57,272 nucleotides of DNA from Chloroflexota bacterium (lineage in GTDB: Bacteria > Chloroflexota > Dormibacteria > CF-121): assembly GCA_005882045.1 (NCBI GenBank), contig VBHO01000145.1, positions 66,038 through 123,309 on the forward strand, written 5' to 3'. The notes under the pieces are model-generated. The model was not told where the DNA came from. It searched no databases and saw only the letters and a program-made list of their open reading frames with translations. Below, piece by piece: positions 52,728-52,816 of this stretch (positions are counted from its first letter, which is position 1; every line of letters begins with the position of its first letter). Made by a program: the position numbers and the translations under genes.

Positions 52728-52758
52728 AGAAAAGTTAAGGCCCTCCGCAAGGAGGGCC
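52728..52758 (-). terminator. intrinsic terminator-like hairpin in the leader of the receiver operon
   Basis: Minus strand reads GGCCCTCC-TTGC-GGAGGGCC followed by TTAACTTTTCT. Confidence 0.6.
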
Positions 52759-52781
52759 CGAAGAGGGGGGCAAGGGAACTA
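52728..52781 (-). ncRNA. candidate short RNA or attenuated leader (about 55 nt)
   Basis: Bounded by a perfect consensus promoter and the hairpin plus U-tract. No ORF. See finding. Confidence 0.35.
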
Positions 52782-52787
52782 GCTGAA

Positions 52788-52816
52788 ATTATAGGCAGGC
52801 CCTGCAATCTTGTCAA
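52788..52816 (-). promoter_or_regulatory. perfect consensus sigma70 promoter
   Basis: Minus strand reads TTGACA (52816-52811), a 17-nt spacer, then TATAAT (52793-52788). Confidence 0.65.

Follow-up and report, generated by a model that had tools for sequence, protein, structure and literature searches.

A conserved promoter, C-rich segment and terminator hairpin define a predicted small-RNA gene beside an HspR-like regulator in Candidatus Dormibacterota

Gene order and the predicted RNA element

The window, that is, the whole stretch of 57,272 nt that was analyzed (G+C about 65%), derives from a Candidatus Dormibacterota bacterium that has not been cultured. When MerR1, the first of two MerR genes in the region, was used to scan one genome per species, 77 loci were returned, all in metagenome-assembled genomes of Candidatus Dormibacterota, many of which are still labeled Chloroflexi, and a few of which carry other labels. 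Two sets of relatives are used below. Group A consists of 38 species-representative genomes (L001-L037, L048) that have the same gene order as the window and carry the element described here, and group B consists of seven diverged sequences (L064, L090, L115, L130, L135, L166, and L169).

All genes around the element are read from the minus strand. A zinc-ribbon membrane protein (54104-53484) is followed by MerR1 (52949-53296, 115 aa), a stand-alone receiver (52611-52183, with its ATG at 52611), MerR2 (52198-51851, overlapped by the receiver gene), and a further membrane protein (51795-51244). The element occupies 52816-52728, from promoter to tail, between MerR1 and the receiver gene. MerR1 matches Pfam MerR_1 and NCBIfam NF047375 (91 bits), and MerR2, a paralogue of MerR1 with 73% DNA identity, matches the NCBIfam HspR model at 87 bits. 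HspR is the best model for both proteins, and since both scores lie under its cut-off of 105 bits, "HspR-like" is the right term. The MerR-receiver-MerR cassette (51851-53296, minus strand) is conserved across Dormibacterota, including lineages that lack the RNA (L038-L075). In locus L074, tandem copies of a unit of about 55 nt containing CACAAGGGGGGCAGGCCCCCCTTGTGGGGAACCCCCCTCGCCCCGC were observed at about 3885-3960 (plus-strand coordinates, repeats on the minus strand); the unit is unrelated to the small RNA.

MerR1 has its own promoter, TTGAGG-17-TATACT (53360-53332, minus strand). Just upstream of its -35 box lies the motif GTTCA(C/T)ATGTATTTAC (53371-53386, minus strand), which is kept in several group-A loci and could be an operator of this promoter. 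Additionally, the interval between MerR1 and the zinc-ribbon gene contains a strong terminator-like hairpin with nine pairs, eight of them G-C, and a T-run (53458-53489), which is oriented on the plus strand, opposite to the two genes that flank it. Between the MerR1 stop codon and the promoter of the element, no terminator-like site was found. Because MerR1 has no other such site, the hairpin of the element probably also ends the MerR1 mRNA, and the RNA sequence would then also lie at the 3' end of that mRNA. The claim of the sequence-only reading that a terminator behind a promoter cannot simply belong to the upstream gene is therefore too strong.

The order of parts that this reading described on the minus strand, TTGACA, 17 nt, TATAAT, and then a hairpin and a U-rich tail, is all seen at 52816-52728. 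The -35 hexamer TTGACA (52811-52816) lies in the conserved context TGTTGACAAG and is the same in 97 of 97 distinct group-A sequences. The -10 hexamer TATAAT (52788-52793) follows 17 nt later; among relatives it is mostly TATAAT, and the more distant ones have TATACT, TATAGT, TAAACT, or similar. As is typical of sigma-70/sigma-A promoters, all 12 hexamer positions match the consensus, the spacer is 17 nt long, and the hexamers are kept while the spacer drifts. When up to one mismatch was allowed, TTGACA-N17-TATAAT had a single match in the whole window (52816-52788) and none in 100 dinucleotide-preserving shuffles. The promoter scan and the shuffles exclude a chance origin, which had earlier been called very unlikely. 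The HAIR operator CTTGAGT-N7-ACTCAAG had no match with up to three mismatches anywhere in the window. Given this absence and the lack of conservation in the promoter spacer, there is no evidence that the HspR-like proteins regulate the small RNA. From its sequence, the promoter is predicted to be strong and of the housekeeping type, and, with no visible operator, it looks constitutive.

Based on conservation, folding, and a covariance model, the predicted small RNA is about 52 nt long (52728-52780, minus strand) and consists of AGUUCCCUUGCCCCCCUCUUC, a hairpin, and UAACUUUUCU. Conservation sets in exactly at an A located 8 nt past the -10 box, and the preceding 7 nt vary. We infer the 5' end at this conserved A/G, 7-8 nt past the -10 box, and the 3' end within the U-rich tail. 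The 5' part contains an unpaired C-rich segment, UUGCCCCCCUCUUC (52760-52773, minus strand), the presumed seed, which does not vary in either group A or group B; its core is CCCCCCUCUUC (52770-52760). The terminator hairpin, GGGCCCUCC-UUGC-GGAGGGCCU (52738-52759, minus strand), has nine pairs, seven of which are G-C; it can also be written GGGCCCUCC-UUGC-GGAGGGCC(U) (52759-52738, minus strand). It begins 28 nt after the -10 box, in agreement with the distance of about 30 nt noted before. The distance of about 115 nt to the receiver ATG, given in the same reading for the hairpin, holds when counted from the tail (116 nt) but not from the end of the stem (126 nt).

The U-rich tail UAACUUUUCU (52728-52737, minus strand) keeps its character in relatives, where the sequence varies (UUAAUUUUUUU, UUUUUUCU, and, in L115, CGUUUUUUUU) and is still U-rich. 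Thus, a GC-rich stem-loop is followed by a U-rich tail, as in intrinsic terminators, and this structure is kept through sequence change. The U-tract of the window copy is interrupted (UUAACUUUUCU), and termination at this hairpin, as judged from the tract, may be partial. In its predicted fold, the 53-nt RNA (52780-52728) has 21 unpaired nucleotides and the hairpin, with a free energy of -19.1 kcal/mol and a z-score of -2.4; one of 200 shuffled sequences folded as well. The seed is unpaired in the folds of this terminated RNA and of all seven group-B sequences. Directly past the tail, most group-A sequences, though not all, have a G-run, GGGGG (52722-52726, minus strand, in the window), which no group-B sequence has. 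The covariance model R1, built from group A, scores 80 bits at the element and found no second copy in the window.

Conservation in relatives and relation to the receiver operon

To describe the element in a wider set of sequences, metagenome contigs were scanned with the pattern CCCCCCTCTTC-N0-3-GGCCC-N8-16-GGGCC, which gave at least 119 loci. Among the contig matches listed, at least about 85 are true copies, each adjoining MerR1, and the remaining ones are chance matches with neither a promoter nor a MerR gene. Conservation of the promoter and hairpin in relatives, a point raised by the sequence-only reading, was borne out: genomes and contigs together hold at least 101 distinct versions of the element, in which both parts are kept as one unit.

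In group A, GCCCCCCUCUUC, both stem arms, and the -35 box are invariant, and free variation is seen in the promoter spacer, in the loop, and in the DNA downstream. In 97 distinct sequences of this group, column identity averages 100% for the -35 hexamer, 62% for the promoter spacer, 87% for the -10 hexamer, and 62% for the 7 nt before the presumed start. It reaches 92% in the 5' part of the RNA including the C-run and 100% in both stem arms, and amounts to 83% in the loop (22 variants), 82% in the tail, and 46% in the next 25 nt. As far as an alignment can tell, constraint of this kind marks a promoter with a functional RNA and a terminator, and not a protein-coding or operator sequence. Furthermore, the core GCCCCCCUCUUCGGGCCCUCC is unchanged even where the neighboring zinc-ribbon protein is only 42% identical; by this comparison, the small RNA is better conserved than its neighbors.

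One alternative within reach of these data is a peptide of 12 residues, encoded by TTG CCC CCC TCT TCG GGC CCT CCN NNC GGA GGG CCT TAA, since this TTG-to-TAA frame spans the element in the window and in many group-A sequences. The frame has no ribosome-binding site, and loops of five nucleotides shift it. Its TTG is replaced by CTG or TCG in L020, L026, L027, L029, and L037, and group B lacks this TTG. The 12-codon reading is contradicted by the alignment and was rejected; we regard it as extremely improbable.

The stem never varies in group A, and the support from covariation comes from group B and a few G-U changes. A MAFFT alignment of groups A and B displaced the seed by 2 nt and was left out of the pair counts. 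Group B retains CCCCCCUCUUC / GUCCCCCCUCUUC, and its stem, GAGGCCC(CCC/UUC)AC...GUG(GCG/A)GGGGCCUC, has 12-13 bp with a sequence unlike that of group A, including a C-G to U-A exchange within the group. The promoters of group B have an extended -10 region, TGCTACACT or TGCTACAAT. Cleaner U-tails with five to eight U occur in four of the seven (L090, L115 with U8, L130, and L135), and the tails of the remaining three are poor in U. The RNA of group B still lies directly after MerR1 and is followed by unrelated DNA; where the flanking DNA suffices, the receiver-MerR2 pair is divergent from MerR1. The comparison with group B shows that the single-stranded C-run is the most constrained part, that the hairpin is kept as a structure, and that the RNA is linked to MerR1 and not to the receiver gene.

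The scan for a known family suggested earlier was carried out against Rfam. At gathering scores, no family matched the element in a scan of the whole window. Permissive scans of 52400-53100 (E <= 10) and of three group-B loci (E <= 1) gave only chance-level microRNA matches.

The sequence-only reading left two possibilities for this unit, an independent small RNA or a transcription-attenuating leader of the receiver operon. The receiver gene is preceded by TATACT (52634-52639, minus strand), probably the -10 box of the receiver operon, 22 nt before the ATG, and the block TCTATACTGCTTCGCGCC just before this ATG is invariant in group A. The RNA-less Dormibacterota with the MerR-receiver-MerR cassette (L038-L075) have TATACT at the same place, with TATAAT in L075. 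Because the hexamer is kept in these lineages, it is most readily taken as the receiver's own -10 box. Upstream of it, a moderately conserved block (52640-52705, minus strand) consists of CGTATGCC, about 20 nt, CCGT(A/T)TTGC, and then CCATAA. L001, L023, and L024 lack this block, and in L013, L016, and L017 about 80 additional nt are inserted ahead of it; its sequence might represent a regulator-binding region of the receiver promoter.

If the element were an attenuating leader, its consensus promoter would be the main promoter of receiver-MerR2, and the hairpin would be a regulated or partial terminator, setting the amount of transcription that gets through to the receiver gene. In line with this, the unit in group A always lies upstream of the receiver on the same strand, the U-tract in the window is imperfect, and, in the predicted fold of a read-through RNA, the G-run just past the tail would base-pair to the C-run and mask the seed. 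However, group B and several members of group A lack the G-run. Moreover, the distance from the terminator to TATACT varies from about 45 to 190 nt among relatives, and this spacer, itself poorly conserved, shows no antiterminator that is kept among them. The Rfam scans matched no family of riboswitches or leaders. The receiver's own -10 box and the layout of group B, where the RNA has no receiver operon downstream, argue further against a leader. The sequence-only reading also proposed that the C-run might pair with the downstream segment GGAGGGGC. Both the C-rich stretch and this segment are present as described, and their pairing is predicted in the window; the segment is not conserved, however, and lies in the most variable region (46% mean column identity), and the proposal was dropped. 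Pairing of the seed with the ribosome-binding site of the receiver, compared by eye, comes to only 4-6 bp and is inconsistent among relatives.

Public RNA data bear on the same question. Words of the region occur in 25 soil or rhizosphere runs of RNA type, for which the data are assembled contigs with a depth of 2-13. Among 16 runs examined, in which no transcript ends were seen, some contigs go from MerR1 through the promoter and the RNA, as would be the case if MerR1 mRNA stops at the hairpin of the element too, or if DNA was carried over. Further metatranscriptome contigs end about 15 nt past the tail, and others span the RNA region and cross the terminator into the receiver gene, which would suit a leader; contigs that cross both the promoter and the terminator may reflect read-through or DNA carry-over. 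An RNA of 52 nt would be lost in standard libraries, and searches for small-RNA libraries turned up none.

Collectively, the element is very probably a conserved transcription unit made of a promoter and a terminator. That this unit is independent of the receiver operon is likely on the comparative evidence, which favors a small RNA over a leader; we assign the leader a low probability.

Proposed action and a candidate target

By comparison, the element has the features of a small-RNA gene, namely an independent unit and a conserved single-stranded seed. In the proposed mechanism, transcription would start near 52780 from the strong housekeeping-type promoter, and the intrinsic terminator (hairpin 52759-52738 and the U-rich tail) would end the RNA near 52730. 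The mature RNA would consist of 21 unpaired 5' nucleotides with the invariant CCCCCCUCUUC, followed by the terminator hairpin alone. The C-rich 5' end would then pair with G-rich ribosome-binding sites or start codons of other mRNAs and block their translation. Pairing with ribosome-binding or start regions is plausible by analogy, and we infer the transcript ends, the action in trans, and the target. The full statement, an independent small-RNA gene acting by base-pairing through its C-run, is in our judgment somewhat likely.

An independent small RNA might instead serve as a protein decoy or sponge, or as an anti-Shine-Dalgarno mimic, without pairing to specific mRNAs. The invariance of the seed and both arms in 97 distinct group-A sequences exceeds what a plain terminator needs, the very strong promoter looks constitutive, and no convincing set of multiple targets was found, all of which would suit such a role. 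In contrast, group B alters the stem freely and keeps nothing but CCCCCCUCUUC, which suggests that the function resides in the single-stranded segment, and the RNA has no repeated protein-binding motif such as the multiple GGA loops of CsrB-type RNAs. This role is unlikely in our view.

A partner scan of the loci found one site, about 2.1 kb away on the opposite strand, that recurs in most group-A loci. It lies at the start of a gene for a C39-like peptidase (50612-51232, plus strand; Pfam PF13529). This gene has a promoter TGGACA-17-TAAGAT (50577-50605, plus strand) and a GTG start at 50612, 6 nt after the -10 box. In relatives, the promoter reads CTGGAC(A/T)-17-TAAGAT, and all 60 distinct 5' regions place the GTG 6-7 nt past the -10 box, so the peptidase mRNA should be leaderless. 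In the window, a mini-frame of three codons, ATG GCG CCG TGA, overlaps this GTG start.

The candidate pairing site in the window, GAUGAGGGG (50614-50622, plus strand), extends from the third base of the GTG onward. It has one mismatch to the seed and a predicted energy of -19.8 kcal/mol. The exact complement of CCCCUCUUC, GAAGAGGGG, is read by 21 of the 60 distinct peptidase 5' ends. The first codons of the peptidase are mostly GTG-AAG-AGG-GGN. At codon 3, AGG accounts for 40 of 53 arginine codons, compared with 4.3% of the arginine codons in the long ORFs of the window; at codon 4, GGC never occurs, compared with 58% in the same ORFs, and GGA, GGG, or GGT is used. This codon usage suggests selection at the nucleotide level. 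Several points weaken the case for this target: the site was picked out only after the fact, the window copy has its mismatch, signal peptides often begin with a purine-rich K-R-G anyway, and the peptidase homologues among the matches listed are all close relatives, at least 75% identical.

No other good target site was found in the 57-kb window. The sole exact GAGGGGGG outside the RNA gene in the window, at 36707, lies inside a glycosidase ORF and was rejected. A recurrent match about 1 kb upstream in group B is antisense to the coding region of the receiver, and is not a target.

On these sequence comparisons, the 5' end of the peptidase mRNA is a tentative candidate for the target of the small RNA. 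If it is the target, CCCCUCUUC would cover bases 3-11 of the leaderless mRNA, so that the 70S ribosome could not load and the mRNA would be silenced; such silencing is possible, though we would not expect it. If true, the RNA would belong, together with a receiver and a pair of HspR-like regulators, to a stress module that is conserved in a phylum without cultured members.

Significance and comparison with known small RNAs

Dormibacterota are abundant in soils, and to our knowledge the phylum has no cultured representative. A full-text literature search that combined "Dormibacter" with "small RNA" found no paper. An RNA gene whose promoter, seed, and terminator are defined by comparison could join RNA family libraries and improve genome annotation. 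Moreover, its fixed place after an HspR-like regulator and the candidate leaderless target provide hypotheses that are testable in a heterologous host.

Among known systems, the 6C RNA of actinobacteria (RF01066; 6C/B11 in Mycobacterium tuberculosis) is similar in that it is short, occurs in a GC-rich bacterium, and contains a run of at least six C. Several mRNAs are bound by the C-rich loops of 6C RNA, and no chaperone is involved (PMC6486639). Its C-run would pair with G-rich mRNA sites with no need for a chaperone, and the same mode would apply to the RNA described here. In contrast, the C-runs of 6C RNA lie in the loops of two hairpins, whereas the RNA described here has a single C-run, located in its unpaired 5' end ahead of one terminator hairpin. 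The two RNAs also belong to different phyla, and the Rfam scans gave no match in sequence or structure; the covariance models of 6C RNA (RF01066) and RsaE (RF01820) matched neither the window, nor the element, nor the three group-B loci, at the thresholds given above.

RoxS/RsaE of Firmicutes targets Shine-Dalgarno or start regions through C-rich regions. Similar to the RNA described here, it is small and ends in an intrinsic terminator. It differs in having several C-rich motifs, a more complex fold, and regulation by ResD/Rex; the present RNA has a single seed, no visible operator, and no Rfam match. As far as sequence and structure models can tell, the small RNA is not homologous to 6C or RoxS.

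In its layout, with an unpaired seed of invariant sequence at the 5' end and a terminator hairpin directly behind it, the RNA resembles the enterobacterial RybB and OmrA/B. In its gene position, at the 3' end of a protein-coding gene with its own promoter and a shared terminator, it resembles MicL and DapZ. RNAs of these types are Hfq-dependent and have regulated promoters (sigma-E, OmpR), whereas the small RNA described here has a perfect housekeeping consensus promoter. Small RNAs with C-rich seeds are well known, and for this reason the finding alters no general principle. Collectively, the RNA most likely represents a new small-RNA family of a well-known kind, conserved, single-copy, and specific to a subset of uncultured soil Dormibacterota.
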